In this document: positions 34,230 through 60,460 of the stretch, piece by piece
Position numbering within the stretch: the stretch's first letter is position 1
Layout: every line of letters begins with the position of its first letter
Origin: Candidatus Cloacimonadales bacterium
Lineage (GTDB): Bacteria > Cloacimonadota > Cloacimonadia > Cloacimonadales > DAONDQ01
Direction of reading: 5' to 3'
DNA: 64,000 nt
NCBI GenBank assembly: GCA_963662275.1
Contig: OY759316.1
Location: 1,664,001 to 1,728,000, forward strand
Notes under the pieces: model-generated
The model's database searches: none
What the model was told of the DNA's origin: nothing
The model's input: the letters and a program-made list of their open reading frames with translations, nothing else
Translations under genes and position numbers: made by a program

Positions 34230-36041
34230 CTAAACAGCTTTATTTTCATCCCGTTTACGATCGTTATGATTGAGAATCTTCTTACGGAGCCTCATGCTGT
34301 CTGGTGTTATTTCCAGTAATTCATCATCACCGATGTATTCAATGGCTTGTTCTAAACTGAAGATACGAGGCGGAATCAGTTTCATGGCATCATCTTTTCC
34401 GGCAGCACGGTTATTGGTAAGCTTTTTACCTTTACAGACATTGATGATCAAATCTTTATCTTTTGCATGCTGTCCGACGACCATTCCTGCATAAACTTCT
34501 GTATTTGGACTTATGAAGAAAGTACCGCGTGGCTGGAAGGCATTCAGAGAATAACCCAAGGCTACACCGTCTTCCAAGGCGACCATAGAGCCGTGGTTAG
34601 AACTGGTGATGTCTCCTTTGTATTCGGCATATTCAAAGAAACATTGGTTGATAATGCCTGTTCCGCGTGTTTCAGTGAGGAATTCATTCCTGAAACCAAT
34701 CAAACCTCGAGCTGGAACCTTAAACTCTAATCGTGAATATCCATCCACGGCAGCCGTCATGTGGACTAATTCACCTTTTCGACCACCCATCAGGTCAATC
34801 ACTCTTCCTACGTATTCTTCAGAAACATCAACCATAGCCAGTTCGATAGGCTCCAATAATTTACCATTGACTTCTTTAAAAAGCACTCTCGGTTTCGAAA
34901 CTGCGAATTCATAACCTTCACGACGCATGTTTTCCATGAGAATGGACAACTGTAGTTCACCACGTCCCTTTACGGTAAATTTGTCTGCAGTATCGGTTCT
35001 CTCCACGATGAGAGAAATGTTCGTCTGTAATTCCTTCTGGAGTCTTTCCCAAATCTTGCTGGAAGTAACCCATCTGCCTGACCTGCCCATAAAGGGAGAG
35101 TCGTTGATGATAAATTCTATGGCGATAGTAGGATCATCGATATCGATACTGGGAAGAGGGATGGGGTTGTCTTTATTGGCGACAGTTTCACCGACATCAA
35201 TCTGAGCCAGTCCGGCTATCGAGATAATATCACCAGCATAGGCAGTGGTGATTTCTTTTTTAACTAATCCCTCATAGGTAAAGATGTTCGTTACTTTATA
35301 GAGTATTTGCGAATCATCCCTTTTCAGGAGGAGTACTTCTTCACCGGCGCTGATTGTACCGTTTTCAATCTTTCCGGTACCCATCTTTCCCAAATAATCA
35401 TTATACTCAATGGCAGAGACAAGCATCTGGAATGGCTGGTCAATATCACCTTTAGCATCCGGAACTTCCTTAATGATCATTTCGAGAAGTGGGAAGATAT
35501 TCAAAGGTTCATCGATAATTTCATTCACAGCATAGCCTTCTTTCGCTGAAGCATAGATCACGGGGAAATCAAGTTGTTCATGATGAGCATTCAATTCTAT
35601 AAATAAGTCAAAAATCATATCTAAAACATCGTGAGGACGAGCATTGTGACGATCGATCTTATTGATGACGACGATCGGTTTCAATCCAAGTTCCAAAGCA
35701 TTCTTGAGCACATACTTCGTTTGGGGCATGGGACCTTCAAAAGCATCTACTATAAGAAGGACACAATCAACCATTTTCATGATTCGCTGCACTTCACCGC
35801 CAAAGTCAGCATGACCGGGTGTATCAACGATATTTATCTTATAATCTTTATACTCAAGTGAGGCATTCTTAGAAAAGATAGTAATTCCACGTTCTTTTTC
35901 GATATCATTAGAGTCCATGACTCTTTCCACTACACGTTCATTATCCCTGAATAGTCCAGTCTGACGGAGCATCGCATCCACGAGAGTTGTCTTTCCATGA
36001 TCAACATGTGCGATAATTGCTATGTTCTTGATCTTTTGCAT
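34230..36041 (-). CDS. typA: Translational GTPase TypA/BipA
   Basis: [41 protein letters not shown]. Confidence 0.97.
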
Positions 36042-36421
36042 CTTGTTCCTTTTCATTCATTTCAATAGAGTACCATTTTTTGTCGAGGGGGTTTTATAGT
36101 CAAGGCATGATAATGATTTAAATGAACTTCCCCTAAAAGCAAATAACTACAAGCTTCCTCATATTCTACCAGGGAATATGAAATCAATTACAAATAACGC
36201 ATCTTCTTAAGCAAATCTAAAATACTTCATGAATCGTGGCAGCATCGTTTACGTTGCTTTTTACGGAATTAGAAGAGAAGCCACCGCCTGAAGTCCCTCC
36301 CACACAGCTAAAGGAGTTGCCACAAGTGTAGTCGCAATTTGTGACCTCAAGTTGGGGGCGCGTAGTCAAGAAACACTTGACAACACTCATGTATCATTTA
36401 GGTTGTTAATAAGAGGTAACA

Positions 36422-36688
36422 ATGCCAACAATAAGTATGTTTTTTGGAATAATCATCAGGATGTATTGTGGAAATGCGGAACACAATCCACCACATTTTC
36501 ATGCATATTATCAGGAATATACAGCAACATATGATATTGTGCAGGAAGCTTTTCTGTCTGGTAATCTACCTTCAAAGCAATCTAAGATTGTGGAAGCCTG
36601 GGCTGCCATTCATAAAGATGATCTCATTGCTGATTGGCAATTGGCAACAAACGGTGAATTGCCTTTACCCATTGAACCTCTTAAATAG
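36422..36688 (+). CDS. DUF4160 family protein (putative TA toxin)
   Basis: MPTISMFFGIIIRMY...EHNPPHFHA...IEPLK. Confidence 0.85.
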   Translation: MPTISMFFGIIIRMYCGNAEHNPPHFHAYYQEYTATYDIVQEAFLSGNLPSKQSKIVEAWAAIHKDDLIADWQLATNGELPLPIEPLK

Positions 36689-36696
36689 GATTATAT

Positions 36697-36912
36697 ATGA
36701 TTAAACCAATAAAAGTAACCCCTTTAGATGACTATGTTCTTGAACTGACAATGTCGGATATGACGATTAAAAAGTTTAACGTTAAGCCATTCCTTAACAA
36801 AGGAAAGTTCAAAGAATTGATGGATATTAATCTCTTCCGCCAGGCAAGAATCTCTTTCGATGCCATCGAATGGCCCAATGGGGTAGATATTGATCCTGAT
36901 CTGCTGATATAG
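36697..36912 (+). CDS. DUF2442 family protein (putative antitoxin)
   Basis: V.PLDDY.LEL...F..L....LF......AIEWPNGVDIDP; directly after DUF4160. Confidence 0.8.
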   Translation: MIKPIKVTPLDDYVLELTMSDMTIKKFNVKPFLNKGKFKELMDINLFRQARISFDAIEWPNGVDIDPDLLI

Positions 36913-37026
36913 CGCAGCTCTGAACTATTCCCTATTAGCTACTCCCTATTCCCTTATTCAATTCTGCCCTGTCAGCTGTCCGCTGTAAGCTGTCACCTTC
37001 TGTATCGTGGTGATTACTTCAGGAAT

Positions 37027-37383
37027 CGTGGCAGCAGCACTCATGGTTATACTTATAGCGGAAGTAATGACATTGCAACTGTCGCATGGTATTATTCCAA
37101 TTCCGGTAATACGACTCATACAGTTGGCATCAAGGCAGAAAATGAATTAGGTCTGTATGATATGACCGGCAATGTCAACGAGTGGTGTTGGGACATTTTT
37201 GACGTTTATCCGAGTAACTCTCAAAATAATCCACACGGTGCTATCACTGGGTCTGACCGTATTTACCATGGTGGTGGCTGGGGCAGCAGTCCAGGCAACT
37301 GTACCGTTTCCAGTCGGATTAATGCGGGTGCTACTAGCTACGGCAATAGACTCGGATTTCGTCTTTGCAGGAATTCCAATTAA
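37027..37383 (+). pseudogene. C-terminal fragment of an FGE-sulfatase/SUMF1 (C-type lectin fold) protein
   Basis: In frame RG...YTYSGSND..VAWY..NS...TH.VG....NELGLYDMTGNVNEWCWD...HGGGW...RLGFRL. N-terminal part absent. Confidence 0.75.
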
Positions 37384-37386
37384 TTT

Positions 37387-37713
37387 TTAATTAGCTACTG
37401 CCCCGCAGCATTTCTTAAATTTCTTCCCGCTCCCACAGGGGCAGGGATCATTACGTCCAATCTATATTTTGAGTATGATCTGGTAAGACACTTCCGGGGC
37501 ATAGATTAGAGCTTTTTCCTGTATCTTTGACTCTAACATATAATCCATTATAATGGCAATCTGCTGTTTAACCGGCAAGCCATCCCAAGTGAGTTCTTTA
37601 ATCGAAGTCTTATTTTTGAAATATTCATATCTTTCTTCTGATACAAGCTCTTTTAAATAGCTCTTTAAACTGAAATAATTCTTTGGCAAAGGTTTAGCAT
37701 CTGATGTCACCAT
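37387..37713 (-). pseudogene. Internally deleted SEC-C domain protein paralog
   Basis: N-terminus homologous to 43667..44920, then TAG, then in-frame [24 protein letters not shown]. Confidence 0.8.
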
Positions 37714-38344
37714 AATGAAACTCCTATACTTATAAAACATACTTTAGGATGTTTTCTTGAATAAATAAATCAGAAAAATGGAAAAACTCGTCAATTAAAT
37801 TCATATATATATTTTTGGTTACATGATTTAAGTGATTCAACTCATATGAATCTCGAAGTGATGAAACACGATAGCCCATAGCGTCAGCTATGGGTAAAGA
37901 AGCCTCCAAACCTTTGAACCTCGGCAGGGGTGACACATCTGGAAATTCGAAGGACGAAGTTCGAAGGGGGAATCTTGATCGCAATTTGCTACTTTAAGCG
38001 GATGGTAGAAAAACAGAAAGAGAGTCACAAAAAATACTTGGGAAAAAGAAATGAATAACAACAACAATAGAACCAAACCACTATCGCTCATAGGAGCGGT
38101 AGTCCTGCGGTCGTTCTGCGGTAGTCCTGCGGTGCTGCTCTGGTTCTTTTTAAAGTGGAATCCTTGTAAGTTCGAAACTGTAACGCCTTTTGTAACGCGT
38201 TATTCCATAACGTGTCCCGCTGAATTCATTCAGTTCAATTGTAGCGTACATTGGTAATGTGTTGTATTCGATAATGGTATTATCGAAATGTTTCTGCATC
38301 GGGGATTACCAATCACCTATGATAAAAGAATACCATTCTATGTT

Positions 38345-39251
38345 GAATCTCGCAGAGATGAAAGATCATAGCCTGTAGTGGAATGAAATGGAACTACTTG
38401 CAGAAGGTGTTAGGTGCTAGGTGTTAGTAAGGAAGGAAATAGGGATTAGGGAATCGTTCTGATTGAATTCAAGAAGCGTTAAACCAATAAACAAAGATAT
38501 CCTTCATTCTGAATCTCGCAGAGATGAAAGATCATAGCCTGTAGTGGAATGAAATGGAACTACTTACAGAAGGTGTTAGGTGTTAGGTGCTAGGTGTTAG
38601 GTGCTAGGTGTTAGTAAGGAAGGAAATAGGGATTAGGGAATCGTTCTGATTGAATTCAAGAAGCGTTAAACCAATAAACAAAGATATCCTTCATTCTGAA
38701 TCTCGCAGAGATGAAAGATCATAGCCTGTAGTGGAATGAAATGGAACTACTTACAGAAGGTGTTAGGTGTTAGGTGCTAGGTGTTAGTAAGGAAGGAAAT
38801 AGGGATTAGGGAATCGTTCTGATTGAATTCAAGAAGCGTTAAACCAATAAACAAAGATATCCTTCATTCTGAATCTCGCAGAGATGAAAGATCATAGCCT
38901 GTAGTGGAATGAAATGGAACTACTTACAGAAGGTGTTAGGTGTTAGGTGCTAGGTGTTAGTAAGGAAGGAAATAGGGATTAGGGAATCGTTCTGATTGAA
39001 TTCAAGAAGCGTTAAACCAATAAACAAAGATATCCTTCATTCTGAATCTCGCAGAGATGAAAGATCATAGCCTGTAGTGGAATGAAATGGAACTACTTGC
39101 AGAAGGTGTTAGGTGCTAGGTGTTAGGTGATAGGTGTTAGTAAGGAAGGAAATAGGGATTAGGGAATCGTTCTGATTGAATTCAAGAAGCGTTAAACCAA
39201 TAAACAAAGATATCCTTCATTCTGAATCTCGCAGAGATGAAAGATCATAGC
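38345..39251. repeat. Tandem array of 166-187 bp units (5 complete, 6th interrupted by IS110)
   Basis: Units start at 38345, 38511, 38698, 38871, 39044 and 39224. Periods 166/187/173/173/180 differ by the number of TAGGTG[T/C] heptamers. The 6th unit resumes at 40991. Confidence 0.95.
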
Positions 39252-39333
39252 TTACTATAGGAAGGTTAGAAAATTAAGGTAGAAAAACCTCCCTCGTTGA
39301 TATACATAGATCAAATCAACAAAGGAGGTAACA

Positions 39334-40611
39334 ATGATTACCACATCAAAATCTAACCCAAAGAGGTTTTTTGTCAACTCAGAAATGATGCTTGTTGGCA
39401 TTGATATCAGCAAGCACAAACACAGTGTGTATTTTTGTGATTTTACAGGTGAACGGAAGCGTAAGCCATTTTTTATTACAAACAATCATGATGGTTTTCA
39501 GTATCTGCTAAAAGAAGCAGAACAGCAAAAGCGTTTGTGGAATCTGAACGAGATTGTATTTGGAATGGAACCAACAGGTTCATATGTAAAGCCACTCCAG
39601 TACTTCTTGGAAGAACGCTGCTATCAAATCCAAAGCATCAACCCATTACACACTAAAAGATGGAAGGATATTGAAGATAATCATCCATCCAAGAATGATT
39701 TGAAAGACAGTATTATCATTACCTCTCTGTTAAGAATGGGCAAGAGCATCCATCATCGGAGACCTGAAGGTGTTTTCGCGGAGTTGAACAACTATGCAGC
39801 TTATTATCACCAGTTAATCACAGATATTCGCAGGCAGAGGAACTATCTGGAAGCCTCTTATGCCTGTTACTTTCCTGAATTGAGTAACTTTTTCAAATTT
39901 AACAGTACGGGAGTAATGTATATCATGGAGTGTTTTCCTCTTCCTCAGGATATCGTAAATGCAGGATATGAGAATTTTCTGAAGATTATGAAAACAAAAA
40001 GCAAAGGGTGCATAGCTACAGAGAAGCTTCACAGTTTATATCAGGTATCTCTAACAAGTATTGGCATGAGTCAGGGAGCGGATAGTGCGAGAGTGGTCAT
40101 AAATGCGATCTATGAGGATATCAGCTATAAACAATACCATCTCAAACAAATCAAAACAGCAATCATGACATGTGTAGATAAAATCAGTTATGGATCGTTA
40201 TTGGTGACAATACCTGGTTTGAGTAAAGTATCAGTGGGGTTAATTCTGGCGGAGACTGGAGATATCAATCAATATGGTCGATATCAGGATTTAGTCAAAC
40301 TTGCCGGATTGAGTTTAAAACACAATCAATCAGGAGAATACCATGGGCAATATCATATCTCTAAGGTAGGAAGAGTAAGGTTGCGAAGGATCTTGTATAT
40401 GCTTACTCTGGAAATGATTATAAACAATCAATTAATCAATCAGATATATAATTATCAAGTAAAAAAGCGAGGTAATAACAAGGTCAAAACTATCGTTTCT
40501 TTGAGCAGTAAATTACTGGGAATCATGTACTCAATGGTTAAATATGAAAGGTCGTTTGATCCTGAACAGCGAAAGCTATATGCAGGTTATTTAACTGAAA
40601 ATAATCAGTGA
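39334..40611 (+). CDS. IS110 family DEDD recombinase
   Basis: VGIDISK, GMEPTG, KNDLKDS, IPG, AGL...QSG, ISKVGR..LR. AAGGAGG RBS. Confidence 0.92.
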   Translation: MITTSKSNPKRFFVNSEMMLVGIDISKHKHSVYFCDFTGERKRKPFFITNNHDGFQYLLKEAEQQKRLWNLNEIVFGMEPTGSYVKPLQYFLEERCYQIQSINPLHTKRWKDIEDNHPSKNDLKDSIIITSLLRMGKSIHHRRPEGVFAELNNYAAYYHQLITDIRRQRNYLEASYACYFPELSNFFKFNSTGVMYIMECFPLPQDIVNAGYENFLKIMKTKSKGCIATEKLHSLYQVSLTSIGMSQGADSARVVINAIYEDISYKQYHLKQIKTAIMTCVDKISYGSLLVTIPGLSKVSVGLILAETGDINQYGRYQDLVKLAGLSLKHNQSGEYHGQYHISKVGRVRLRRILYMLTLEMIINNQLINQIYNYQVKKRGNNKVKTIVSLSSKLLGIMYSMVKYERSFDPEQRKLYAGYLTENNQ

Positions 40612-40886
40612 GCCAAGAAAAAAAAGTAGTCAAAAAATAATGGAGGTGTTTAGATTGGTTCACTCGCCGGATGATGTAGTCATTAGGCACTAAGGCTTGT
40701 TTACAAGACCTTCTACCATAGCTCATTATAGCACACCGGCGGGTATTATCTCAGATAGGATAAAGTAAGAATAGGATACCATCAGAAGGTAATCCAGTAT
40801 ATCAGCAAGATCGGGATGTAGAACCAAGAGAGCTTTGATAAGTAATATTCGATTTAATCATAGAATTCAGATCGAAAATCAGCGTC

Positions 40887-40941
40887 TCTGGAACCCTGCA
40901 ATGACGCTTCGGTACCCTACGCGTCATTGCAGGGTTCCAGA
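40887..40941 (+). terminator. Perfect 21-bp stem-loop near the IS110 right end (terminator or ncRNA 3' boundary)
   Basis: tctggaaccctgcaatgacgc - 13 nt loop - gcgtcattgcagggttccaga. Confidence 0.6.
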
Positions 40942-41085
40942 AAGCCAAGTACTATGAATATATTATAATATATAACTATCTAACTATATCAGCCTGTAGT
41001 GGAATGAAATGGAACTACAGGGAAGAGTCCCCCCAAACCATTACAATCTCGTAGAGATGACACATCTGGAAGTGCGAAGATCACC

Positions 41086-41185
41086 GTAACGCGGTATTCA
41101 TACCGTGTTTCGCTGAATTAATTCAGTATTATTCAGAGCAGATACAATATAAATAATGCGGTACACGGTATAAATACCGCGTTAC
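41086..41185. repeat. REPIN-like inverted pair (gtaacgcggtattcataccgtgt / acacggtataaataccgcgttac)
   Basis: Same family at ~38192, 42794, 42845-42940 and 45029-45129. Confidence 0.75.
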
Positions 41186-41336
41186 AAACTTGATATCACA
41201 ATTTGCGACCTCAAGATTGTCTACGCACTGCATAGGCTTTTCTCTGTAATGCTTAATTTTTCATTATTAATTCTTAATGCATGTCTTCCAATCTGCTAAT
41301 CTGCTCTGATAATTCTTAATTTTTAACTTTTAATTT

Positions 41337-42689
41337 TTAATTGCTTACTGCCCCGCAGCATTTCTTATATTTCTTTCCGCTGCCGCATGGACATGGATCG
41401 TTTCTTCCGATTTTCGGAGCATTAGAAATGACCGGTTGAACAACAAATTCAATCTCATCTTTCTTTTTTGGTTTATATAATTCATCATCATCATCAAAGA
41501 ACGCTTTATACTCACCAATTGGGTCATCAGAGTTACTCCAGGGATCTTCTCCATCAGTAAACGGTATATCCTGATCCCAATCTATGGAAGAGTTTTTGTC
41601 ATAAAAATCGAAGCGAAGCTGATCTGCATTTTCATCGATGATGACAGGTTTAACGGATAATGAGAGTTCCTTTGGTGTATGACCTCTATGTATCCAGGAG
41701 CGGTAATGATTATAGTAATCAGTTACTGTAATATAGAGTCTGTTCTTTGTTTCAATATTGTAATCCTCAAGGAATAGGTCATCATACAAATCATTGATTT
41801 CGAATGGTTTCGCCCCATAATTGAAATCCATTGTGATATGTAAAATAAATACCATCGCGGCTGCTGGTTCAAGCCCGAAAGTACTTATCAGTAAGTCTTT
41901 TAATGCCAGATATTGAGGTGTTTCTTCAAAATAATCCTCTTTACCATACATCATTAACTCATCTTCCTTAGGGATATATAGTTTTTTGTACTTAATTCCA
42001 TGAGCCAATTTTTCGTAATCGTCCATATTTATAAGATTACATAGATTGACTATTCTGCCATCGATAAAACTGAAATATGGACATAGCAGACTATATTCTG
42101 TGATATATGAGTTCAATTGTTCATCAGTTAGGATATCTTCTTTCCAAAAGAAATGTGACCTATAAATTTTAATTAAATTCGCTGGTTCAAAGATTCCATA
42201 GAAATTCAGACATGGATTAATACGGGAAATGAGTGGTTGAACTAAGCTTCTTCCCAATTCTACTGTCTTTTCCTTAATTGCATACAAAACTTCTGCAATT
42301 TCGTCAAAAAGGATATACGTAGATTTTATCTGCTTTCGCTTATTCGGATTAGGATAGGAATCAATGCGGTAGATCATGAAATTATAATTCAAGTACCAGT
42401 ATCCGTTATTGATAGTGTTCTGTTCCAAGGGAATTTGTGAGCTGATACTCTGAAGTATGGTCAAGGAGGCTTCCGGTGCATATATAAGTACTTTTCTGAT
42501 ATATTCTTCATTGACAACGTATCTCTGCATTAAATCAACTTGCTGATGAGAATCTAATTTATCCCATTCATCTTCAATCATTTCAGTTTTCACACCGAAT
42601 AAAATAAAACGTTCAACCGAAGAAAGCTCTTTTAGATAACTTCTTAAACTAAATTTATCTGCAGCGATTTTCTTTTTGGATTTATTCAT
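41337..42689 (-). CDS. SEC-C motif protein (paralog 2)
   Basis: [19 protein letters not shown]-terminal [20 protein letters not shown]. Confidence 0.85.
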
Positions 42690-42844
42690 ATTTTTGCTTT
42701 GAAACTCCTTGTTTGTGTAAATCTGGAAATTTTAAAAATTAGTCAATTAATTTTGCTTAGCATTGCTCTGAGAATTGCAACGGGATGCAAACCGTAACGC
42801 GTTATTTATAACGTGTAACGCTGAATTCATTCAGTTCTTTACCT

Positions 42845-43356
42845 GTAACGCGTTATTCCATAACGTGTGCTGCTGAATTCATTCAGTTCCGTGCAGATAC
42901 TTTATAAATAAAGCGATACACAGTATGAATACTGCGTTACGATGTCTGACAATCTTGAAGTCGCAATTTGCGATATCAAGATGCAGTGGAAGAAGACAAT
43001 CGAACTATTGAGAAATCCTCAATAGTTGAGGTTACAATCCAAGTATAATCGGCATTTGAACGGCAGTTATTAACTAATCCTTAATAACTGAAAGAGGACA
43101 GATTCCCATCGGGAAGATAGATTCTAACACCGGATTTCAATCCGATGAAATGTAATGAGAGTGACTCCCTATTTCCCCCTTCTTTTGTAAAAGAGGGGGG
43201 AAATAGGGGGAGTTAGTTCTGCTCTGCTAATCTTTACCTGTCGTCCCCACTGGACTGATATGTTAGGGTGTACTCTGTCGCCGGATTGCTTCTTGAACTT
43301 GAAGTCTCAATATGCGACCTCAAGATTCTGAAAATCAAGAAACCCTTGACAATGCT
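42845..43356. repeat. ~510-bp mosaic palindrome block, duplicated at 45029-45547 + 47409-47453
   Basis: Same order in both copies: gtaacgcg REP pair, ORF6N-type palindrome, two RhuM-type palindromes, ggatttcaatcc element, tttccccct..agaggggg hairpin, ORF6N-type palindrome, TTGACA promoter. Confidence 0.9.
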
Positions 43357-43390
43357 ATTGTCTCATTTATGTTGTTATTAAGAGGTAACA

Positions 43391-43609
43391 ATGCCAACAA
43401 TCAAACCCATAAAAGTTACTCCCTTAGATGACTATGTACTTGAACTGACGATGTCTGATATGACGATTAAAACATTCAACGTAAAACCATATCTAAGCTT
43501 GGGTAAGTTTCAGGAGCTAAAGGACATCAGTCTTTTTCGACAGGCAAGAATCTCTTTCGATGCCATCGAATGGCCTAATGGTGTAGATATTGACACTGAT
43601 CTACTCTGA
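43391..43609 (+). CDS. DUF2442 family protein (orphan; starts with the DUF4160-type MPTI)
   Basis: Closely similar to 36697..36912. Upstream leader matches that of the DUF4160 gene at 36422. Confidence 0.8.
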   Translation: MPTIKPIKVTPLDDYVLELTMSDMTIKTFNVKPYLSLGKFQELKDISLFRQARISFDAIEWPNGVDIDTDLL

Positions 43610-43666
43610 TAGTCTGTTTCTGCCAATCTTCCATCTTAAATCTTCAATCTTAAATTCTGCCAATTC

Positions 43667-44920
43667 TTAATCAGCCACTGTCCCGCAGCATTTCTTATAC
43701 TTCTTGCCGCTACCGCAGGGACATAGATCGTTTCGACCTATCTTATCAGCTTTAGAGATAACAGGCAGTACTTGCTCTTCATCATCATCAAATTCATCAT
43801 AGTCATCAGGTTCTTCAACATCAGCGAAATCAAAAAACCGCTGGTCAGAGTCTATCTTTAGAATCCTGTATGGTTTCTCAGAAGATTTCTTTTTTATAGG
43901 TTCAATTCCATGCATTTTGTAATCAATTTCAAGAGGTGTGTGCCCTCGATTGAACCAAGTCCTAAAATGATTAGAAAAATCAAACCATAATTCTGTATAA
44001 TAATTTTTTAGTTCTAATTCAACCTTATTGATCTCCAAATTGATGATTTGTAGCGGATTCCTACCAAAGTGAAGTTCTGCAACCACGCGAGAGATAGTTT
44101 CAAGCGCAAAATCTTCCTCCAATTGAAGATCATATATCATGAATCGAGCTAACTCCATGAATTGAGGCGAGAAATTAATGCAGGAGATACCATAGCTCAT
44201 TAACTCAGATTTTGGGGGAACATATAATGGTTTGTCTTTGATTCCCTGGTGTAAGGAACGATAAGCTTCTAAAGTAACTCTGAGCACAATCTGATCATCC
44301 TTCAGAACCAGATCATTGTAGTAATGTTTATAGTTTTTCAGCAATTTCCGCAATTCCTGGTCAGGTAGAGAATCGATATTCTGTGATCTATAAATCTTGA
44401 TCAGGTTCTCGATCTCAAGTATGCCATAAAAGTTCAGGCAAGGTTCAATGTAGGAAATGAATGGCTGGATTACTTTTCTTTTAGTTTCAAGTTTCGTTAG
44501 GTTGAAAGAAGTCAGAATTGGAAGTAAATCTTCAAAAATAAAAAATTCATCCAGTTCCTCTTTATCTCTACATATTTCAAGGAAATTGCATTTATTATTA
44601 ATGATGAAGTTATTATAGAGATAGATTTCTCCATCTTCTGCTTCTTTTCGGGTTAGTGGCTTTTTGTTCAATAGCTTGAGTATTATGTGATAAGATATTT
44701 CAGGTGTATAGATGAGTATTGTCTCCAGGTTCTTGGGCTTTGTAAAATATTCGAACATGATGTTGATCTGCATTCTAACAGGTAAACCTTCCCAGATAAG
44801 TTCTTTGATAGAAGTCTTTGATTGAAAATATGCATACCTTTCATAGGATTCAAGCTCTCTCAAGTAGCTCTTTAGCCCGAAGTAATTCTTTGGTAAAGGT
44901 TTAGTATCTGATGGTACCAT
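43667..44920 (-). CDS. SEC-C motif protein (paralog 3)
   Basis: [38 protein letters not shown]. Confidence 0.85.
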
Positions 44921-45547
44921 AACAAACTCCTTATTCCGTATAAATCTGGAAATGGAATAAATCAGTCAATTAAATTTGCTTCTTATTGGATTGAGCCAAG
45001 AAAAGGAACTCTAAATGTAACGCGGTTTGTAACGCGGTATTTATACCGTGTTCCGCTGAATTCATTCAGTTCTCTACAGAGCAGATACTTTATAAATAAA
45101 GCGATACACGGTATGGAATACCGCGTTACGATGCGTTCCAATCTTGAAGTCACAATTTGCGACCTCAAGTTGGGGTGGAAGAAGAACAACTGAACTTTTG
45201 AGAAATCCTCAATAGTTGAGGTTACAATCCAACTATAATCAGCATCTTAATGTCAGTTATTAACGAATCCTCAATAACTGAAAGAGGACAGATTCCCATC
45301 GGGAAGATAGATTCTAACACTGGATTTCAATCCGGTGAAATGTACTGAGAGTGACTCCCAATTTCCCCCTTCTTTTGTAAAAGAGGGGGATAAAGGGGGA
45401 GTTAGTTCTGCTCTGCTAATCTTCATCTGTCATCCGCACGGGACTGATATGTTAGGTTGTGCTTTGGTCGCCGGATTGAAATCCGAGCGTTAATATGTTG
45501 CATCCGTACCGGATTGTTTCTTGAACTTGAAGTCGTATATTGCGAAC

Positions 45548-47408
45548 GAGACTGTTCATGAAGTTATTCATAATATTCAATAAGTTAGAAAGTAGCAAGT
45601 TGAAAAAAGTGGTCGAAACGGTCATAATTTAACATACCTTCCAGAATTGACAGATAAGCTCTGCTAAGGACACCAAATCACAAGTTAAGCTTTTTGACTA
45701 AAATTGAAAAACACGCGATTATAAGTAATGTTTCGAAGCCGTTTCTGACTAAATGTGTAGTTAAAATCATATAAAATAGTTCTTTACAAGTTTTTTGCTA
45801 TAGCTTCAATGGCATTTGTTACCTGGTAACAAAAGGGAGGATATTATGACAAAAAAACACTCCAATTCAAGAAGCGGTAAGTGTTAGTCATGAAAGTAAC
45901 CAATACCATGTAAGTATTAACGTACCATTTTCATTCACTTTGCCTGAGACAACATCAAACCACAAGTTCTTAATAGCGTTTCTACGCTTATTAGTAGGAA
46001 TAGGCGGAGACAACCTCCTTACACTTCAGCAAATAGCTGATCTGTTTAACTACGCAGACCGCAGGAATGTACATAATTTCTGGCAAGAGTTTGAGCAGCA
46101 TGGTCATGATATCCTGGCATATTTAAGCCGGAAAGTTGACCTGCTGGAGTGTATTCCTCAGATCGAGAATTTTGTTATCAATAACCTGCTTTTACCTTTA
46201 AATGTCATGTATCAGGAGTTCATCAGCCATCATGATTTTAAAATGTCCTATACCACTTTCTGCAAATATGCTTCTCAGGTCAATTCTCTGTCTGTAGTTA
46301 AGCAAGCTCAGAAGCTTCTTCTGAAAAAGACAGTAGGCGGTGATGCTGTACATCTGCTGAAACTGCTTGCCGGTCAGCAGAATACACCTGTTATCTGTGA
46401 CAGACTCCTGGAACAAATGAAGACTGCTAAAGGCAATACATCCCATAGAACCGCCGATGCAAAGCCGTTCCATAGTCTGGAACGCAAGAACCTGTGTCTG
46501 CTGGTACATTACCTGGTTGGAAGCGGTATGAACTTCGAGACGATAGCTTTGCTGCTCAACACCTGTAAAGCTACAGTCTCAAATCTCTGGCATGAAATCG
46601 CTGACCTGCAGAGCCTGATTCTGAACTCAATCGGTAAGTGGAGCGGAAAGATCAGCATTGATGAGAAATATGTGAAGATCAAAGGTATTCCGTACTATGT
46701 CATCAGTATTGTTGATTTTGTGACTCACATCCCTCTGTTTTGTGAGTTGTATCCTGACACAAAGAAAGAATCATTCGAAGCATGTTTCAGAACCTTCAGA
46801 CAGCTCTACAGGAAAGATCCAACCCTGATTGTCAGTGATGGCAGTAAATCGTTAGCAGTTGCAAGAAAAACAGTGTTTCCAAAAGTCCATTACCAACTCT
46901 GTAAGTTCCATAAGATACGAAATCTCTTCAAAAGAATCAGTCAATGTCATCTCCCTGAAGACAGGGACAAGTTCTTTAAGAAGAGGATTATGAAAGCTTT
47001 CCGAAGAGAAACGGCGGGCGGAAGGAAAAAGGGTATCGCAAGCCTGACAGCTATTACTCCCCCAACCGCCGCCGAATACATCAAAAGCAATATCATTAGT
47101 GATTGGAGACACCTCAGCAAAGGTTTGACTTCCAATGTCTCTGAACGCTGGAACCGCAAAATCAAGAAGGTGACATCCGGTAGATTTGGACTAAAATCTG
47201 AAGAAACCACCCGCAACCTTGTGTTTTCGCTTTGGTTCAAAGAACTGGTCGATAAAGGTCAACCAATCATGCGTCAGGAATCACTTTTAGCAAGTTTAAA
47301 TATCTCCCGCATATGTCAAGAAAATGTGGATTGGTCGCACTTAGACCACTTTTTCTCTGTCACTACCAATAAGGCTGCGTAAAATGGAGGTTAATTTTGA
47401 ACAGTCTC
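45548..47408 (+). mobile_element. Mutator-like (IS256/ISH6-related) insertion sequence
   Basis: Terminal inverted repeats gagactgttca / tgaacagtctc; 8-bp target-site duplication TTGCGAAC at 45540-45547 and 47409-47416. Confidence 0.9.
45846..47382 (+). CDS. DDE transposase; RBS-led ATG at 45846 is out of frame across an A7 run (track ORF 45940..47382)
   Basis: SIDEKYV, IVSDG, QLCKFH (CxxH), TSNVSERWN. GGGAGG RBS precedes ATG 45846. Confidence 0.8.
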
Positions 47409-47500
47409 TTGCGAACTCAAGATGCTGAAAATCAAGAAAAACTTGACAATGCTTGCTTACTTGTTTACTTGTTAATATGTTAGATAAAGCAGGAGTATCC

Positions 47501-47737
47501 ATGAAAACCAAAAAGAAACCAGACATTGAAGATAGCATATCTGATTTAGCTCGAGAAGCAACTAGTGAAGCTTATAAGAAGGCTATTGATGCAGGCTATA
47601 ACGTTGCGATCCGCAAAGGCAATCAAATTGTGGAAGTAAATAAGGATGGTATCGTAAGAGTGATTAAAGAAGTTGCTCCTTTGGTTGCAGTGAAAAAAGG
47701 TACAAAATTTACTACGAATGGTAAGTCAAACTCCTAG
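47501..47737 (+). CDS. Small hypothetical protein, putative antitoxin partner
   Basis: AGGAG RBS before ATG 47501; overlaps the downstream P-loop gene. Confidence 0.6.
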   Translation: MKTKKKPDIEDSISDLAREATSEAYKKAIDAGYNVAIRKGNQIVEVNKDGIVRVIKEVAPLVAVKKGTKFTTNGKSNS

Positions 47738-48464
47738 GGTTAGATTGTTTGCTGGTCCGAATGGATCAGGGAAAAGTACTATCAAGGCTAAGCTAAGCAC
47801 TAAGTTAATCGGAATATTCATTAATCCTGATGAAATTGAAGAACAAATCAAAAATGAACATACAATTAATTTCGATACCTACCAAATTGGCATAACTAAA
47901 CAGGAAATATCTGACTTTCTATCAAAATCTTCTGTATTACAAAAAGATGGAAAGAATCTGCAATTGGATGATCTTGTTATTGAAGATAATAAGATTTCAT
48001 TTATGAAAACTGCCATTAACTCCTATTATGCTTCAGCTATTGCAGAGATGCTTAGAAATTATCTCTTAAAATCTGGTATATCATTTTCGTTTGAATCGGT
48101 TATGTCACATGAAGATAAGGTGCAATTTCTGAAGAAAGCTCAAGAGTCAGGATATCGGACATATCTGTATTATGTTGCTACAGATGATCCTGCTATTAAC
48201 ATCATAAGAGTAAAGAATAGAGTTAACGCTGGAGGGCATCAGGTTCCGGAGCGGAAGATTATCGACAGATATTACAGATCAATCAATCTACTTAGAGAGG
48301 CTATAAAATATACAAATAGAGCCTATATCTTTGATAATTCTGGTGAACAAAGTATTTTGATGGTAGAAATCACAAATGGAACAGATTGGGAAGATAAGTC
48401 CGATATTATTCATTCCTGGTTTGTGGAGACGTACAATTATTTCCACTCTGATGCAAAGAAATAG
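47718..48464 (+). CDS. Zeta-toxin-like P-loop kinase/ATPase (COG4185-like)
   Basis: FAGPNGSGKST, INPDEI, FSFESV, RV..GGH.VP, IFDNS. Confidence 0.8.
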   Translation: MVSQTPRVRLFAGPNGSGKSTIKAKLSTKLIGIFINPDEIEEQIKNEHTINFDTYQIGITKQEISDFLSKSSVLQKDGKNLQLDDLVIEDNKISFMKTAINSYYASAIAEMLRNYLLKSGISFSFESVMSHEDKVQFLKKAQESGYRTYLYYVATDDPAINIIRVKNRVNAGGHQVPERKIIDRYYRSINLLREAIKYTNRAYIFDNSGEQSILMVEITNGTDWEDKSDIIHSWFVETYNYFHSDAKK

Positions 48465-48678
48465 ATACTGTCTGAGAATTCTCTTCTCTGCTCTGCTCAA
48501 TATTCCATTTTCCATCTTCCATTATGCACGTTCTTAACTCTTCAATCTTAAATCTTTCTCGTTTTCCTTGACAAAACAATTACTATTATTCTTTTATTCT
48601 ACAATATTTACATAGTATTGAATCACATAGGAGAAACTTGAAATCGCAAATTGCGATATCAAGATTGAGGGGGGAAGT

Positions 48679-49194
48679 ATGAATGAGCTAATACTAGCAG
48701 AAACTCAAATCGAAAAGCAAATCATCGAAATCAGAGGCATGAAAGTCATCCTCGATTCTGATTTAGCGATATTGTATGGTGTTGAAACACGAGTTTTGAA
48801 CCAACAAGTTAAACGTAACTTCGAACGCTTTCCAGAAGACTTCATGTTTCAACTAACTTCAGAAGAATTTGCAATCTTGAAATCACAATTTGTGATATCA
48901 AGATGGGGTGGTCGTAGAACTCCTCCTTATGTTTTCACAGAACATGGTGCTCTAATGGCAGCATCAGTACTGAATACTCCCCGTGCTGTTGAAATGAGTG
49001 TTTACATTGTCCGTACATTTGTTAAGCTACGCAGTTTGTATTATCAGCATAAAGAACTGGCAGGTAAAATTGAAGAACTGGAAGCAAAGCTGACTACCCA
49101 TGATCACGCTCTCAACCAAATACTCAAAACTCTGAAACTACTCTTAGAAAAACCTGTTGAAGAAAAACGGAAACCAGTTGGATTTAAGAAATGA
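48679..49194 (+). CDS. ORF6N domain DNA-binding protein
   Basis: RGMKVILDSDLAILYGVET..LNQQVKRN.ERFPEDFMFQLT..E...LKSQFVISRWGGRR.PYVFTEHG. Confidence 0.92.
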   Translation: MNELILAETQIEKQIIEIRGMKVILDSDLAILYGVETRVLNQQVKRNFERFPEDFMFQLTSEEFAILKSQFVISRWGGRRTPPYVFTEHGALMAASVLNTPRAVEMSVYIVRTFVKLRSLYYQHKELAGKIEELEAKLTTHDHALNQILKTLKLLLEKPVEEKRKPVGFKK

Positions 49195-49251
49195 TCTGAT
49201 GATTACTTCTAAATCTTCAATCTACCATCTTCAATCTTACATTTTGTACCG

Positions 49252-50265
49252 TTACTTCTTCTTTTCCAGTTTCTTCACGTTTTCCACAACTTCCACAAAA
49301 TGCTTTTCAACAGGTGAAGGCTGTTCGATTTGTTCCTGATGCCATTTCTCATATTCTGTACGAGCTTTATCTATTGCATCTTCATGTGCTATCTTACCGG
49401 CATGGGTAAGAATATCACGTCCTGTAAGTTTCAGGAATTCGTCGAGTTTAGTGATCCAGTCTTTCATGTGCATGGGAATTCGATTCAAAGCTTGTAGTTC
49501 TGCAAAGTCAAGGTACATGGTCACAATTCGTTTCAAGATATCCAATTCATCCGCATTTAAATAGTTTTTCGCTACTTCTGCATCTGCTTTATTCGGAGAA
49601 TCACCAAGCCAATTTGTCATTCCCATGTTTGGTTTATCAGCGCTTGCTCTTTCATAAATGATCTCTGCTGCTGTATGACCATGACTTGCCCAATGCATCT
49701 TATTCTGCATGACTTTAAAGAATGAATGCGATACTTCTGTTTGCGGATCATAGTCTATACTGGTGGCATAAATATCCAGTATCTTTCGCCAGAAGACTTT
49801 CTCGGAAGAACGGATATCTCTGATGCGTGCAAGTAATTCATCAAAGTAATTACCGCCACCGGATTCTTTCAAACGCTTATCATCCAGGACGAAGCCCTTG
49901 ATTATATATTCCCGTAACTGCTTTGTTGCCCATTGACGGAAATGAGTTGCCACAGAAGATTTGATACGATAACCGATGCTGAGTATCATATCAAGATTAT
50001 AGTGTTTTGTAGTGTATGACTTGCTGTCGAGGGCAGTTATTAAGTAATCCTTAATAACTGAATTTGGTTTTAGCTCATGTTCATCGAAGATGTTTTTAAT
50101 ATGAATATTGATGTTTTGAACTGTAGTTTGAAACAAATCAGCAAGCTGCTTCTGATTCAGCCATATAGTTTCGTTTTCCAATCGAGTCTCAATATGAATC
50201 TGACCATCTTTGCTTTGATATAAAAGGAATTCGGTATTTGACTGTACTTTCTTTGACTCTTTCAT
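49252..50265 (-). CDS. Virulence RhuM family protein (COG3943-like)
   Basis: ETIWLNQKQLADLF, HIKNIF, YNLDMILSIGYRI.S..A.HFRQWAT, GFVLDDKRLK, RIRDIRSSEK, QNKMHWA. Confidence 0.92.
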   Translation of the reverse strand: MKESKKVQSNTEFLLYQSKDGQIHIETRLENETIWLNQKQLADLFQTTVQNINIHIKNIFDEHELKPNSVIKDYLITALDSKSYTTKHYNLDMILSIGYRIKSSVATHFRQWATKQLREYIIKGFVLDDKRLKESGGGNYFDELLARIRDIRSSEKVFWRKILDIYATSIDYDPQTEVSHSFFKVMQNKMHWASHGHTAAEIIYERASADKPNMGMTNWLGDSPNKADAEVAKNYLNADELDILKRIVTMYLDFAELQALNRIPMHMKDWITKLDEFLKLTGRDILTHAGKIAHEDAIDKARTEYEKWHQEQIEQPSPVEKHFVEVVENVKKLEKKK

Positions 50266-50637: not shown

Positions 50638-51780
50638 TTACAGTTTACCGCCATCAAAGCAATTTGCCAAAAACAACAGCGACCAAGGCGGTGATCTTGG
50701 TTTTCCGGTAATTGAAGCATGCTGTGTCATCTTTGATTTGCAATTAGGGCAGAGGTCTTTTTCAAATTTGGGAATTACAAAAGTTTTAGCTGTCTGATTC
50801 TTGTCATTAGAATCGGACTTTGCTGGGAAAAAGCTGTTGACCATCTCCCAGACAGATTTTGCCGCCGGACTGAGAAATCCGTAGTATCTGATTTTCTGAA
50901 ATCCCTGCGGCAGAACATGCATCAGGAACTTATTGATAAACTCCACGGAGTCGACGCTTTTAAAGGCGAATTTAGCTGAACCTGCCGGCTTGTATTTAAA
51001 GGTTACCAGCCCGTCCTTTTCCCAAAGGATGCGATTGTTGGTGATGGCGGTCCGATACACATAATTGGCCAAATAAGTCAGAGCCTCCCGACCTTTTCCG
51101 ACGGGTCGGGAGTCTGTGACAAACTCTTTTTGCTGCCAGACTAGCGGGGATATCCGACCAAACAGATGCTGATTTTCCAGTCGAAGCAAATCACGGAATT
51201 TTGCCCGGTAAATCACCGAAAGAGCTTTGACCGGAATCAGGAACTTATTGCCTGCTTTTTGCCATTCCTTTCGTTCTTTATTCCAAGCTCCGCCGGGGAC
51301 TATATAATGAATATGAGGATGATATTCAAGCTGCCTTGTCCAGGTATGAAGTACCCCGGTAAAGCCTGAAACGCCACCGGCATATTTGGGATCTGAAAGC
51401 AATGTCTTTAAGGCTTCAGATGATGCTTTGAACTGAAGATCATAAAGCAGTTTCTGATTTGACAGGCATGTTTTGTGCAGTTCCCGGGGTATGGTGAAAG
51501 TTACCATGAAGTACTTAACCGGCAGCAGTTTGGCAAGCTGCTTTTCCAGCCATTTCGCTGAATCATTACGGCCACACTTCGGGCAGTGACGGTTTTTGCA
51601 GGAATGATAGGAATAATGCAGTTCCGCACATTCCTGGCATAAATAGACTTCTCCGCCCAGTTCAGGTGTCCGGCAAAGGAGAATATCTCTGATCGCTCTT
51701 AAATGGCTTTCCGGTGACTGGTTTCCATATTTTTCCAGATACTCGGACAGGTTGTTTTTGAGAATCCTGCTAAAATCCAT
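50638..51780 (-). CDS. IS91/IS801-like HUH (Y2) transposase with Zn-binding domain
   Basis: CRT..LGG, HSCKNRHCPKC, LHTW....HPHIH, YLANY, HVLP.GF.KIRYYG, PRSPP. Confidence 0.9.
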   Translation of the reverse strand: MDFSRILKNNLSEYLEKYGNQSPESHLRAIRDILLCRTPELGGEVYLCQECAELHYSYHSCKNRHCPKCGRNDSAKWLEKQLAKLLPVKYFMVTFTIPRELHKTCLSNQKLLYDLQFKASSEALKTLLSDPKYAGGVSGFTGVLHTWTRQLEYHPHIHYIVPGGAWNKERKEWQKAGNKFLIPVKALSVIYRAKFRDLLRLENQHLFGRISPLVWQQKEFVTDSRPVGKGREALTYLANYVYRTAITNNRILWEKDGLVTFKYKPAGSAKFAFKSVDSVEFINKFLMHVLPQGFQKIRYYGFLSPAAKSVWEMVNSFFPAKSDSNDKNQTAKTFVIPKFEKDLCPNCKSKMTQHASITGKPRSPPWSLLFLANCFDGGKL

Positions 51781-52653
51781 TTACATCTTATTCATCAGTT
51801 CATTGATGATTTTACATGACTGCTCTCGGGAAACGTTAGTCAAATGCACGTATACCATGGTCGCTCTAAGACTTTCGTGCCCGAGCAAGTCTTTGATGAT
51901 GATGATACTGACACCTGCTTCCAATAAATGTGTGGCATAAGAATGTCTGAGTGTATGACAGGTTACATGCTTAGGGATGCGTGTCTCCTTTAAGGCTGAC
52001 TTCAGAGCTGACCGAAGAGTTTGGACAGAAATCTGGTTCGAGGTTGTCATTCTGTTAATATCAGCCTGTCTGGTGCTTCTGCTCGGGAATAAAAGCTGTC
52101 TGTTCTGATGGGTTTTCCAATATTCCCGGAGTTCCTGATACAATTTTTCAGGCAGAGGTATTGACCTGTCTTTGTTGCCTTTGGATTGCCTTACCGTGAT
52201 GGTCATCAATTCCCGGTTGATATCGGCTATTTTAATCTTGACTGCTTCCGAAATCCTTAATCCGCATTGATAGGTAAGAGTCAGTAAGAGTCGATAATCA
52301 TAAGTATGAATGCGGGAGATAAGCATTCTAACTTCGTCTGTGGTCAGAATCACAGGAAGTTTGTGCTCAATCTTTGCCTTAAAAAAGGTAAAATCCTCTT
52401 GCCTGAAACCAACAACATGGATGAAAAAAAATCTGATGCCATAATAGGCTGATTTTAAACTCTGAGGACTATAATTCTTGACGTTATGCAGGTAGACAAA
52501 ATATGTTCTTACCTGTTCAATAGATAGTGTGCCGGGGTCTTGACCATAATATGATGCTAAAGAAGTGACTTGTCTGATGTAATTGTATTTTGTCTCTCGG
52601 GACACGCCTCGAAGATCAAGGCACTCTAAAAAGCGAACTTCGTATGATTCCAT
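51781..52653 (-). CDS. Tyrosine recombinase/integrase
   Basis: GLRISE, KGNKDR, HTLRHSYATHLLE, LGH, VY. Confidence 0.92.
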   Translation of the reverse strand: MESYEVRFLECLDLRGVSRETKYNYIRQVTSLASYYGQDPGTLSIEQVRTYFVYLHNVKNYSPQSLKSAYYGIRFFFIHVVGFRQEDFTFFKAKIEHKLPVILTTDEVRMLISRIHTYDYRLLLTLTYQCGLRISEAVKIKIADINRELMTITVRQSKGNKDRSIPLPEKLYQELREYWKTHQNRQLLFPSRSTRQADINRMTTSNQISVQTLRSALKSALKETRIPKHVTCHTLRHSYATHLLEAGVSIIIIKDLLGHESLRATMVYVHLTNVSREQSCKIINELMNKM

Positions 52654-60000: not shown

Positions 60001-60460
60001 GACTGCCAAAGGCTTGCAGAACCTGAATGTGGATGGGGATGCCTATCTTCCTGAAGACTATATTTCCGATGAAAGAGAAAGACTGGAAGTCTATAAACGC
60101 ATGATGCACCTTGTGAATGAAGCTGATTTTGAAGACCTGAAAGCCGAGCTTGTGGATCGCTTTGGGAAATTACCACCTGCTGCAACGCAGTCATTCTTAT
60201 ACTTCCGCTTACGTTCTTTAGCAGAGCAGGCTGGACTGGTGGCATGTCATTTGCACGAGCAATTTATGCAGTTGGAGTTCCATACGGAAAAGACACCACC
60301 TAAAGATGTGATCATGAACTTCCTGAAGAGTACCAACTTCAATGTGAAGTTTGATGCTTCGGGCAATTTCAAGCTGACTATTACCTTCCCGAAGAAGAAG
60401 TGGGAAGAAGCAGAGCTGCTGGAAATGGGGATTGGAGTGCTGCTGGCGTTTGTAGTCTAA
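57059..60460 (+). CDS. mfd: Transcription-repair coupling factor
   Basis: RGGILDIF, GDYIVHIDHGIG, GDVGFGKTEV, DEEHRFG, SATPIPRT, QIRGRVGR, RDLEIRGAG. Confidence 0.97.
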   Translation: MFYHLIKHYLEKSSFFQRMDETVQNAQNHVQFHNLNQSAKALVVSKYFTDTGRNVLLISGDDKAAEEFSDDLEVLLGRDKVYLFPDFEVLPYEERSPHSSIRSQRTDAMSHVVTGMPAIYTLSLRSFLRRIIPRKLFEKNVITLQKGMEYDPEVLVSDLVGMGYEVEYQVSKICQVARRGGILDIFSPNMQEPVRVEFFGDEIQSLRTFSIVSQRSETRITSKVLILPSREFSRHDIQTSDEMWEKVHTTDFYEGIENDISLLFPEVQLFLDYFEPENVCLFWDEFQYTEDDYSELLDETTKLYEKALIKTKKPSTIPKPTQIFADEAKLKQIWQKYNQHYLAHSEQIISYSEESIGAAIQSQPMLNGDVTELEKELSKRIHQGFKIIIQSDNKSQSKRMQELLAEHEEDIQYTIGVLHKGFLLQDIQLAVYTDHEIFNRYKRKHYTARFARGEALTNYEALKPGDYIVHIDHGIGIFAGLKKILLEGSTIECIMINYAENDRIYVPTFQLQLVSRYVSEEGGEPTVHKIGSKKWENTKSKAKSQIELVAEDILRLYAERKMRKGISHEPDTPWQTEMEDSFIFEDTPDQAQSSKEIKEDMEAPSPMERLLCGDVGFGKTEVAIRAAFKAVMSGYQVAVLVPTTLLAEQHWRVFRERLAQYPVRIAMFSRFRSATAVKKDLEKMAKGEIDIAIGTHRLLSADVKFTKLGLLVIDEEHRFGVRHKDKLRQLKANVDTLYMSATPIPRTLGMALSKLKEISLMQTSPKERLPIRTVVTQYNQEVVKDAIQREIDRGGQVFYLHNRIQSIQATADKLKALLPNVRFAIGHGQMPEHLLENITNDFVDHNIDVLISTTIIENGIDIPNANTIIIDRADTFGLAQLYQIRGRVGRSPRRAYAYLLIPKGITEDARKRLDTLTEYDYLGAGFQIAMRDLEIRGAGTLLGIKQSGIITAIGFNYYNKLLTQAIENLEKENPAGLWEDETAKGLQNLNVDGDAYLPEDYISDERERLEVYKRMMHLVNEADFEDLKAELVDRFGKLPPAATQSFLYFRLRSLAEQAGLVACHLHEQFMQLEFHTEKTPPKDVIMNFLKSTNFNVKFDASGNFKLTITFPKKKWEEAELLEMGIGVLLAFVV

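Follow-up and report, generated by a model that had tools for sequence, protein, structure and literature searches.

A palindrome inside ORF6N genes covaries with the predicted recognition helix of the encoded protein

We analysed a 64,000-nt stretch of the genome of a Candidatus Cloacimonadales bacterium (assembly GCA_963662275.1, contig OY759316.1, positions 1,664,001 to 1,728,000; hereafter the window, numbered from its first letter), in which a gene of the ORF6N family (48679–49194, plus strand, 171 aa) carries a 27-bp palindrome, CTTGAAATCACAATTTGTGATATCAAG (48876–48902), within its coding sequence. Comparison with ORF6N genes from many phyla revealed a palindrome of this kind at the same protein position in nearly all genes sampled, one base pair of which covaries with residues of the predicted recognition helix; on these sequence grounds, ORF6N most likely binds a site encoded in its own gene. 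The explanation that we favour, with a probability of about 0.55, is that the internal palindrome is the matching duplex site of ORF6N, that a second copy in the leader of the gene is autoregulatory and that further copies in the surrounding accessory island are diverged relics.

A palindrome shared by ORF6N genes

The protein was assigned to its family by a match to Pfam PF10543 (E 1.1e-35; 122.2 bits against a curated cut-off of 27.8; residues 14–97); at E up to 0.01, the only other Pfam match was a weak one to Phage_pRha. An AlphaFold2 model (mean predicted local distance difference test score, pLDDT, 81) contains a helix-turn-helix formed by helices 26–33 and 37–46, the second of which holds the predicted recognition-helix residues V39, Q42 and Q43 (VETRV39LNQ42Q43V), and consists beyond residue 100 of helices only, among them a long C-terminal one (101–138). 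Prediction of a homodimer from two copies of the protein (alignment A2) scored 0.16 against a mark of 0.42 and was used neither way. A sequence search of solved structures gave no match at E up to 1, and Foldseek against the PDB returned only weak rows, led by a Ski/Dachshund domain at E 0.06 and then by MarR-type winged helices, which are too weak for a fold to be named.

An earlier note on this DNA, made from the letters alone, had described the codons for LKSQFVIS as an imperfect 27-bp palindrome. This holds: 12 of its 13 pairs are Watson–Crick, the core is TCACAATTTGTGA, pair 4 (counted from the centre) is A.T and the whole lies within the codons of ILKSQFVISRW. It encodes residues 66–75, which fall at the end of helix 61–70 and in the low-confidence loop 71–83 of the AlphaFold2 model, a part of the protein that plausibly tolerates sequence change. 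No U-tract was seen 3′ of the palindrome. The idealised palindromic site of this kind can be written as GGTCACAAWTTGTGACC.

Relatives of ORF6N were fetched by peptide patterns outside the palindrome-coded residues, yielding 79 loci in named genomes that span many phyla (88 genes) and 80 metagenome loci (84 genes). An embedded palindrome was defined as one centred on CAAWTTG, about 200–250 nt into the gene, with a pair 4 that fits helix residues 39 and 42; the gene of the window is of this kind, its V39/Q42 helix predicting the A.T that is present. A palindrome centred on CAA(A/T)TTG was found at the same protein position in 86 of the 88 genome-set genes and in all 84 metagenome-set genes. Its mean score was 11.4, compared with 3.5 after random synonymous back-translation of the same proteins, and the observed score was reached by at least one of 200 synonymous resamples in 12 of 87 genes. 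Watson–Crick pairing amounted to 90–100% at pairs 2–6 and 9–13 and was weaker (65–76%) at pairs 7–8, with G-T wobble not favoured over other mismatches. The centre base was T in 43 genes and A in 42, as expected of a symmetric duplex site.

The encoded peptides shift in step with the DNA, occurring as SQFVT (core TCACAATTTGTGA), SQFAT (TCGCAATTTGCGA), YQFGT (TACCAATTTGGTA), FQFGT (TTCCAATTTGGAA), CQLGT and LQIAT (TTGCAAATTGCAA). Furthermore, a second subfamily carries the same core one frame over, where it is read as EVVTNCDHL (GAGGTGGTCACAAATTGTGACCACCTC); the palindrome centre falls at codon position 0 in 81 genes, 1 in 6 and 2 in 1. Covarying arms, peptides that move with them and the use of two frames together indicate that the DNA symmetry is conserved and that the peptide follows.

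Next, we searched the alignment columns outside the palindrome for those that predict its bases. In the genome set, 42 genes have G-C at pair 4, 37 have A-T and 8 have C-G, and residues 39, 42 and 43 predict this pair as well as its own codon does. Arg39 (with Glu42) goes with G.C in 42 of 43 genes of the genome set and in 42 of 43 of the metagenome set; Val, Ala, Ile, Met, Thr or Ser at position 39 with Gln42 goes with A.T without exception (34 of 34 and 33 of 33); and Arg or Lys42 goes with C.G, mostly in the former set and in 7 of 8 genes in the latter. The rule is valid in both reading-frame subfamilies and in several outer-arm classes. Across the two sets (170 genes), the internal site fits the helix of its own protein in about 98% of cases. 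Pairing of arginine with guanine and of small hydrophobic residues with thymine is ordinary direct read-out. On a quick tree, which was built without the helix and palindrome columns and rests on a short protein, helix class and pair 4 each change 17 times, and all six independent supported pairs change together (p 0.031). The covariation between pair 4 and the recognition helix in two independent samples, as well as the extra copies found a short way upstream of ORF6N genes across many phyla, leads to the prediction of self-site binding.

Those extra copies comprise 14 sites within the 200 nt ahead of the start codon (−200 to −1), spread over 11 of the 79 genome-set loci, compared with 1.2 in shuffles, and 18 upstream sites in 14 of the 80 metagenome loci, compared with 0.4 in shuffles; upstream sites thus accompany about one locus in six. 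A few further sites in the genome set and five in the metagenome set lie just downstream of the gene, whereas non-genic sites of this type are otherwise rare. A relative from the same order (G037; locus L024, G037:C23, 6800–7380) has four tandem copies between its ORF6N stop codon and the next small gene. These non-coding copies have covarying arms (for example, GTCAC/GTGAC and GTACC/GGTAC), and the ORF6N gene itself bears a one-base frameshift just after a perfect internal palindrome.

Copies of the palindrome in the window

The variant copies that the earlier note had located in the window were all recovered, and two patterns for the palindrome each gave 0 matches per 100 dinucleotide shuffles. 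A scan of the 4.38-Mb genome, allowing up to five substitutions from the consensus 27-mer, gave eight matches, seven of them inside 12.6 kb of the window. A scan based on structure rather than sequence placed ORF6N-type sites only in the window and at genome position 913911.

The leader copy (48637–48663; 12 of 13 pairs, core TCGCAAATTGCGA, G.C at pair 4) stops 15 nt short of the ATG and immediately precedes the GAGGGGGG Shine–Dalgarno sequence, a placement that the first reading had noticed, and its centre lies 239 bp upstream of that of the internal copy. The two share their outer arms, including an A-A mismatch; the leader copy has G.C on both arms at pair 4 and a flipped centre base. It most likely belongs to the common pattern of a site ahead of the gene, and ORF6N bound there would most likely influence the expression of its own gene; the plain reading of the in-gene placement would be autoregulation from a pair of sites separated by 239 bp. 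The same 66-bp leader (palindrome, Shine–Dalgarno sequence and first codons) also precedes a gene 0.8 Mb away (genome 913898–914592), which we take to be DUF1016-like solely from its N-terminus. That gene is apparently split into two open reading frames (ORFs) of 120 and 99 aa, and its surroundings look like another defence-type island.

The remaining copies lie in a mosaic accessory island between typA (34230–36056) and mfd (57059–60460), whose genes include DUF4160/DUF2442 pairs, a 94-aa ORF followed by a zeta-toxin-like gene (47453–48464), two genes with SEC-C motifs (41337–42689 and 43667–44920, both minus strand) and a fragment of a third (37462–37740, minus strand), a RhuM gene convergent with the ORF6N gene and IS110, IS256-like and IS91-type insertion sequences (IS). 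The genes next to the copies occupy both strands. Copy A1 (36325–36351; 8 of 13 pairs) had its left arm cut or replaced by a rearrangement with its junction at 36328/36329; there, a 678-bp DUF4160/DUF2442 segment (36329–37006) with a palindrome copy at one end only interrupts the remnant of a ~110-bp repeat unit. Copy C (41189–41215; 10 of 13 pairs) is downstream of the first SEC-C gene, and copy B1 (42954–42980; 11 of 13 pairs, G.C type) is 265 bp upstream of it. Copy A2 (43298–43324; 10 of 13 pairs, T-C mismatch at pair 4) stands ahead of a DUF2442 gene (43391–43609). Copy B2 (45143–45187, the palindrome plus 18 nt reading WGGRRT; 11 of 13 pairs) is 223 bp upstream of the second SEC-C gene. 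Pair 4 is a G-T or A-C hybrid in A1, C and B2, the last being A-C. Copy A3 (45526–45547 and 47417–47421; G.C at pair 4, broken core) is split by an IS256-like element (45548–47408, 1861 bp) with an 8-bp target duplication, TTGCGAAC, at 45540–47 and 47409–16. This element gave 39 BLAST rows in the genome, and the 21 rows examined were all full-length and 100% identical; from these many identical copies, it is a very active IS. A degenerate copy (37974–37998, TCGCAATTTGCTACTTTAAG, which matches the reference at 80% across 20 nt) lies upstream of the SEC-C fragment.

Three copies had been reported to stand 21–25 nt upstream of the TTGACA of toxin–antitoxin promoters. The distances are correct (25 nt for A1, 21 nt for A2, whose TTGACA is at 43346, and 21 nt for the restored A3, the putative promoters of A1 and A3 being at 36377 and 47443), and the genes that follow are DUF4160/DUF2442 and zeta-toxin genes, A3 facing the 94-aa ORF and its zeta-toxin partner. 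The promoters themselves are only putative: a consensus promoter scan lists one of the three (43346), and its total of 51 is not above the 45.7 found in shuffles.

Palindrome and TTGACA form a duplicated unit with three occurrences, and the SEC-C 5′ region another with two to three, in which the similarity of copy C to the B2 module stops at the right edge of the palindrome (41215). Within these units, the palindromes of B1 and B2 are identical at 24 of 27 positions, compared with flanks at 89% and 87%, and those of A2 and A3 at 16 of 22, compared with flanks at 82% and 81%. The six island copies keep 8–11 of 13 pairs, and their differences are non-compensatory. The palindromes diverge as quickly as the DNA beside them; in addition, a junction cuts one copy, an IS splits another and most are of a type unlike that of the resident protein. 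In sum, they look like weak, foreign, hitch-hiking or relic sites rather than a maintained regulon.

Read in the frame of the gene, the copies do give the alternative peptides proposed for them (ILKSQFATSSWGGRRT at 45141 and ILKSQFAISRCSGRRQSNY at 42952). A further claim, that similarity runs past the palindrome into ORF6N coding context, stood in part. Most of this context is the palindrome itself, extending to CAATCTTGA...TCAAGATTG, and similarity continues only in the 45143/42954 pair (15 nt, WGGRR) and in A1 (SSWG). A six-frame search with the family profile around five copies found 17–20 residues only (best E 0.0025, at 45143) and tblastn around the copies 16–19; no longer, decayed ORF6N pseudogene was thus detected there. 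Such remnants are missing from the external copies of other genomes, and from the WGGRR and SSWG extensions we suggest that at least one ancestral island copy derived from ORF6N coding DNA, probably that of a SQFAT (Arg39-type) gene. The six copies at 36.3–47.4 kb would be ORF6N-type sites that have diverged, most of them suited to Arg39-type relatives, and would have spread with the duplicated promoter and 5′-region modules of the island.

Several other repeats share this neighbourhood. The ~110-bp unit interrupted at copy A1 (36223–36328 and 37007–37390), whose remnant is joined to an FGE-sulfatase C-terminus, forms long tandem arrays elsewhere (genome about 2347800–2354400), which are probably a giant repeat-protein gene; a contig joint of 36328 to 37007, considered as an empty site, is explained by this tandem-repeat family. 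Five tandem units of 173–187 bp, 96–100% alike, occupy 38344–39320 directly 5′ of an IS110-family transposase gene (39334–40611), and a 28-nt piece of the unit recurs at 40991. The 5′ regions of the SEC-C genes hold another palindrome family, AACGCGGTATTTATACCGTGTT, together with a CTGAATTCATTCAG palindrome. The former has 13 matches genome-wide, seven of them within the window, and includes positions 41088, 41162, 42796, 42917 and 45031 as well as genome 1534814, a match about 300 bp ahead of the second, distant PF10543 gene of this genome (1535130). In the SEC-C/DUF2442 intergenic unit, a 20-pair G+C-rich hairpin (43165–43210) separates the two palindromes, and a paralogous unit (45357–45466) is 80% alike. 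Short runs of the heptamer TCTT(A/C)AA end several island genes (43627–43656, 48539 and 49228) and have 120 matches genome-wide, often in tandem arrays.

Other classes of dispersed palindrome were considered and set aside. A repetitive extragenic palindromic (REP) element mobilised by a Y1 transposase is at odds with the confinement of seven of the eight matches to 12.6 kb, and a different, abundant palindrome family fills that role in this genome. A cyanobacterial HIP1-type origin was rejected likewise, GCGATCGC being without enrichment (12 copies). The abundant family is a perfect palindrome, GTAGAGACGCCCAA(C/G)TTGGGCGTCTCTAC, which makes up most of the 92 matches of the structure-based scan (for example, genome 681241 and 1124966, and a tandem array at 4043232–4043672); with the IS200-like Y1 transposase gene of the window (60690–61418), it may form a pair of the kind known as REP and REP-associated tyrosine transposase (RAYT).

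Weighing the explanations

Under the explanation that we favour, the palindrome would be the duplex target that matches ORF6N, a small protein in which a helix-turn-helix is followed by a C-terminal helix, and the coding stretch, a helix end plus a flexible loop, would be tolerant enough for the DNA symmetry to be kept despite changes of peptide or frame. Several points weigh against it. We infer binding of the palindrome by ORF6N from sequence, and the helix codons lie only ~100 bp from the palindrome, so that one recombination tract could move both and mimic independent co-changes. External copies match the predicted type of the neighbouring protein in 21 of 38 cases, 10 being opposite and 7 hybrid or other, and the leader copy of the window is among those that do not match. 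Moreover, the outer arms vary from copy to copy within one array even though every copy remains self-complementary, and the arms covary even in non-coding copies. A plain model of one protein and one operator does not explain this arm covariation and these type mismatches; the outer-arm pattern would suit a hairpin or cruciform, or correction of the palindrome by template switching. Finally, the same TTGACA distance in three island copies could reflect function rather than shared descent.

The earlier note had joined self-encoded operators to a regulon over toxin–antitoxin genes. Its first half, binding of the self-site, agrees with the covariation of helix and pair 4. Its second half, in which the resident ORF6N would hold working operators over the DUF4160/DUF2442, zeta-toxin and SEC-C genes and the unlinked DUF1016-like gene, we consider unlikely. 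It would account for the copies ahead of TTGACA, for the 66-bp leader shared with the second gene and for the clustering of external sites ahead of genes in other genomes, and the unusual V39-Q42-Q43 helix lends it something further, since the other VLNQQ protein with an external copy (L047) also pairs both site types (anecdotal, n=2). However, the island copies evolve like their flanks, with compensating changes not seen; their pair 4 is G.C or mismatched (A-C and G-T hybrids, T-C in A2) where the protein class predicts A.T; and one is cut by a junction and another split by an IS. Since the three promoter-linked copies belong to a single duplicated unit, their common spacing counts as one event, and the promoters are putative. 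A role as folded structure, in which symmetry is kept for pairing in an RNA or single-stranded DNA hairpin or a cruciform (a processing or pausing signal, or the substrate of a hairpin-binding enzyme), is less probable still. The arms do covary, including in the non-coding copies of G037, array copies vary in their outer arms while staying self-complementary, and the weak spot at pairs 7–8 divides two stems, whereas the indifference to G-T wobble, the equal use of T and A at the centre and the absence of a 3′ U-tract all speak against it, and pure folding gives no reason why three helix-turn-helix residues should track pair 4 almost perfectly.

We give even less weight to the palindromes as attC-like or dif-like crossover or insertion points at which the island was assembled from cassettes. 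Copies are limited to the accessory island, module similarity stops at a palindrome edge (41215) and within an arm (36328/36329), ORF6N pseudogene fragments in other genomes (loci L098 and L094) break near the palindrome and a tyrosine recombinase gene lies at 51781–52653. Yet only one end of the inserted 678-bp segment carries a copy; the recombinase gene abuts an IS91-type Y2 transposase gene and is therefore probably part of that element; the palindrome occurs within single ORF6N genes in hundreds of unrelated contexts lacking a cassette array; and the helix-site code indicates ORF6N as the reader. The IS91-type gene directly follows that of the recombinase (290 aa), the two spanning 50638–52653 on the minus strand. 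An integron cassette array, which would have a site at each cassette boundary, co-oriented cassettes and an adjacent integron integrase, was rejected, given the one-end copy at 36329–37006, the genes on both strands and the IS91-type neighbour of the only tyrosine recombinase, to which no IntI model was applied. The other proposal of the earlier note, that the copies are silent donor cassettes diversifying this segment of ORF6N by gene conversion, is very improbable. The plausible alternative peptides of the copies favoured it, but conversion from non-matching copies would break the match between internal site and helix that holds in about 98% of genes. The closest relative found (L012, 70% identical) differs in the palindrome segment no more than in the rest, contigs of four runs were without alternative letters in 48560–49260 (a weak test, since contigs hide rare variants) and no diversity-generating enzyme was noticed among the nearby genes.

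Comparison with known systems and implications

Protein sites inside coding DNA are familiar from lac O2 in lacZ, parS in parB/spo0J and the lambda origin in gene O; parS and the lambda origin lie in the gene of their own binder, and site pairs 240–400 bp apart suit looping. The ORF6N site differs from these in occupying one protein position across many phyla, in dictating about 10 residues, in being read in two frames and in covarying with the recognition helix. Roi of phage HK022, a protein from the same wider domain network, reportedly binds a site in its own gene. Integron attC and Acinetobacter pdif sites are short imperfect palindromes between small cassettes, often of toxin–antitoxin genes; the ORF6N copies, by comparison, are not found at both module ends, have their home inside a gene and have no dedicated recombinase shown.

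The earlier note had known of no described system of this kind, a statement to be qualified. The closest precedent is the abortive-infection protein BstA with its aba element (Owen et al. 2021, PMC8585504). BstA has a KilA-N-like domain and acts in phage defence, and aba is a DNA element that overlaps the bstA gene and acts as DNA, each BstA variant having its own matching element (PMC8585504). ORF6N would resemble BstA in the predicted matching of a protein to a short DNA element overlapping its own gene. As described there, aba measures 63 bp, extends across the start codon and requires direct CCCGCC repeats at its ends, and BstA has a second, C-terminal domain (PMC8585504). The ORF6N site, by contrast, is a mid-gene palindrome, and the 171-aa ORF6N protein has a helical tail only. 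The domain architecture of BstA was accordingly rejected for ORF6N, in which Pfam found no KilA-N at E up to 0.01 and only helices follow residue 100. The helix-site covariation implies matched pairs of ORF6N protein and site, of a form different from aba. In the literature on ORF6N and on KilA-N domains and palindromes as far as it was accessible, with subscription journals mostly outside its scope, no description of the embedded palindrome itself was found.

A possible link to defence also comes from the PADLOC candidate defence family PDC-S05, whose model PDLC04856 is matched by the ORF6N protein (E 2.1e-56, residues 1–170), as a sequence match only. The neighbouring RhuM protein matches PDC-S05 too (E 2.4e-144), and direct comparison found no sequence similarity between the two. 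In a preprint, the PDC-S05 representative that protected Escherichia coli carried a RhuM domain, not ORF6N (10.1101/2024.09.26.614923); the demonstrated protector is thus of the RhuM type, although proteins of both kinds match the models.

A more speculative alternative, which we regard as doubtful, is that the embedded palindrome is a self-mark: ORF6N proteins would be DNA-sensing defence or addiction factors from which the replicon carrying the gene is exempt, and arrays of non-matching sites, as in this island and in the leaders of other genomes, would let foreign or sister ORF6N proteins dock, a form of cross-talk between mobile elements. Were this true, protein and site would be inseparable, with lineage codes of Arg39/Glu42 for G.C, Val or Ala39/Gln42 for A.T and Arg or Lys42 for C.G, and the system would be a palindromic, family-wide counterpart of BstA and aba.

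Returning to the duplex site that we favour, the window carries a caution: look-alike site clusters beside toxin–antitoxin genes need not be a regulon, and here they appear to be passengers of module duplication. If ORF6N does read a site in its own gene, a very widespread and unstudied family, present in roughly 7,100 stretches of the genome collection, would gain a testable DNA target and a simple residue-to-base recognition rule. The palindrome would then be a clear case of selection at the DNA level overriding protein sequence and even reading frame, and it would suggest how small genes of defence islands separate self from non-self, or regulate themselves.

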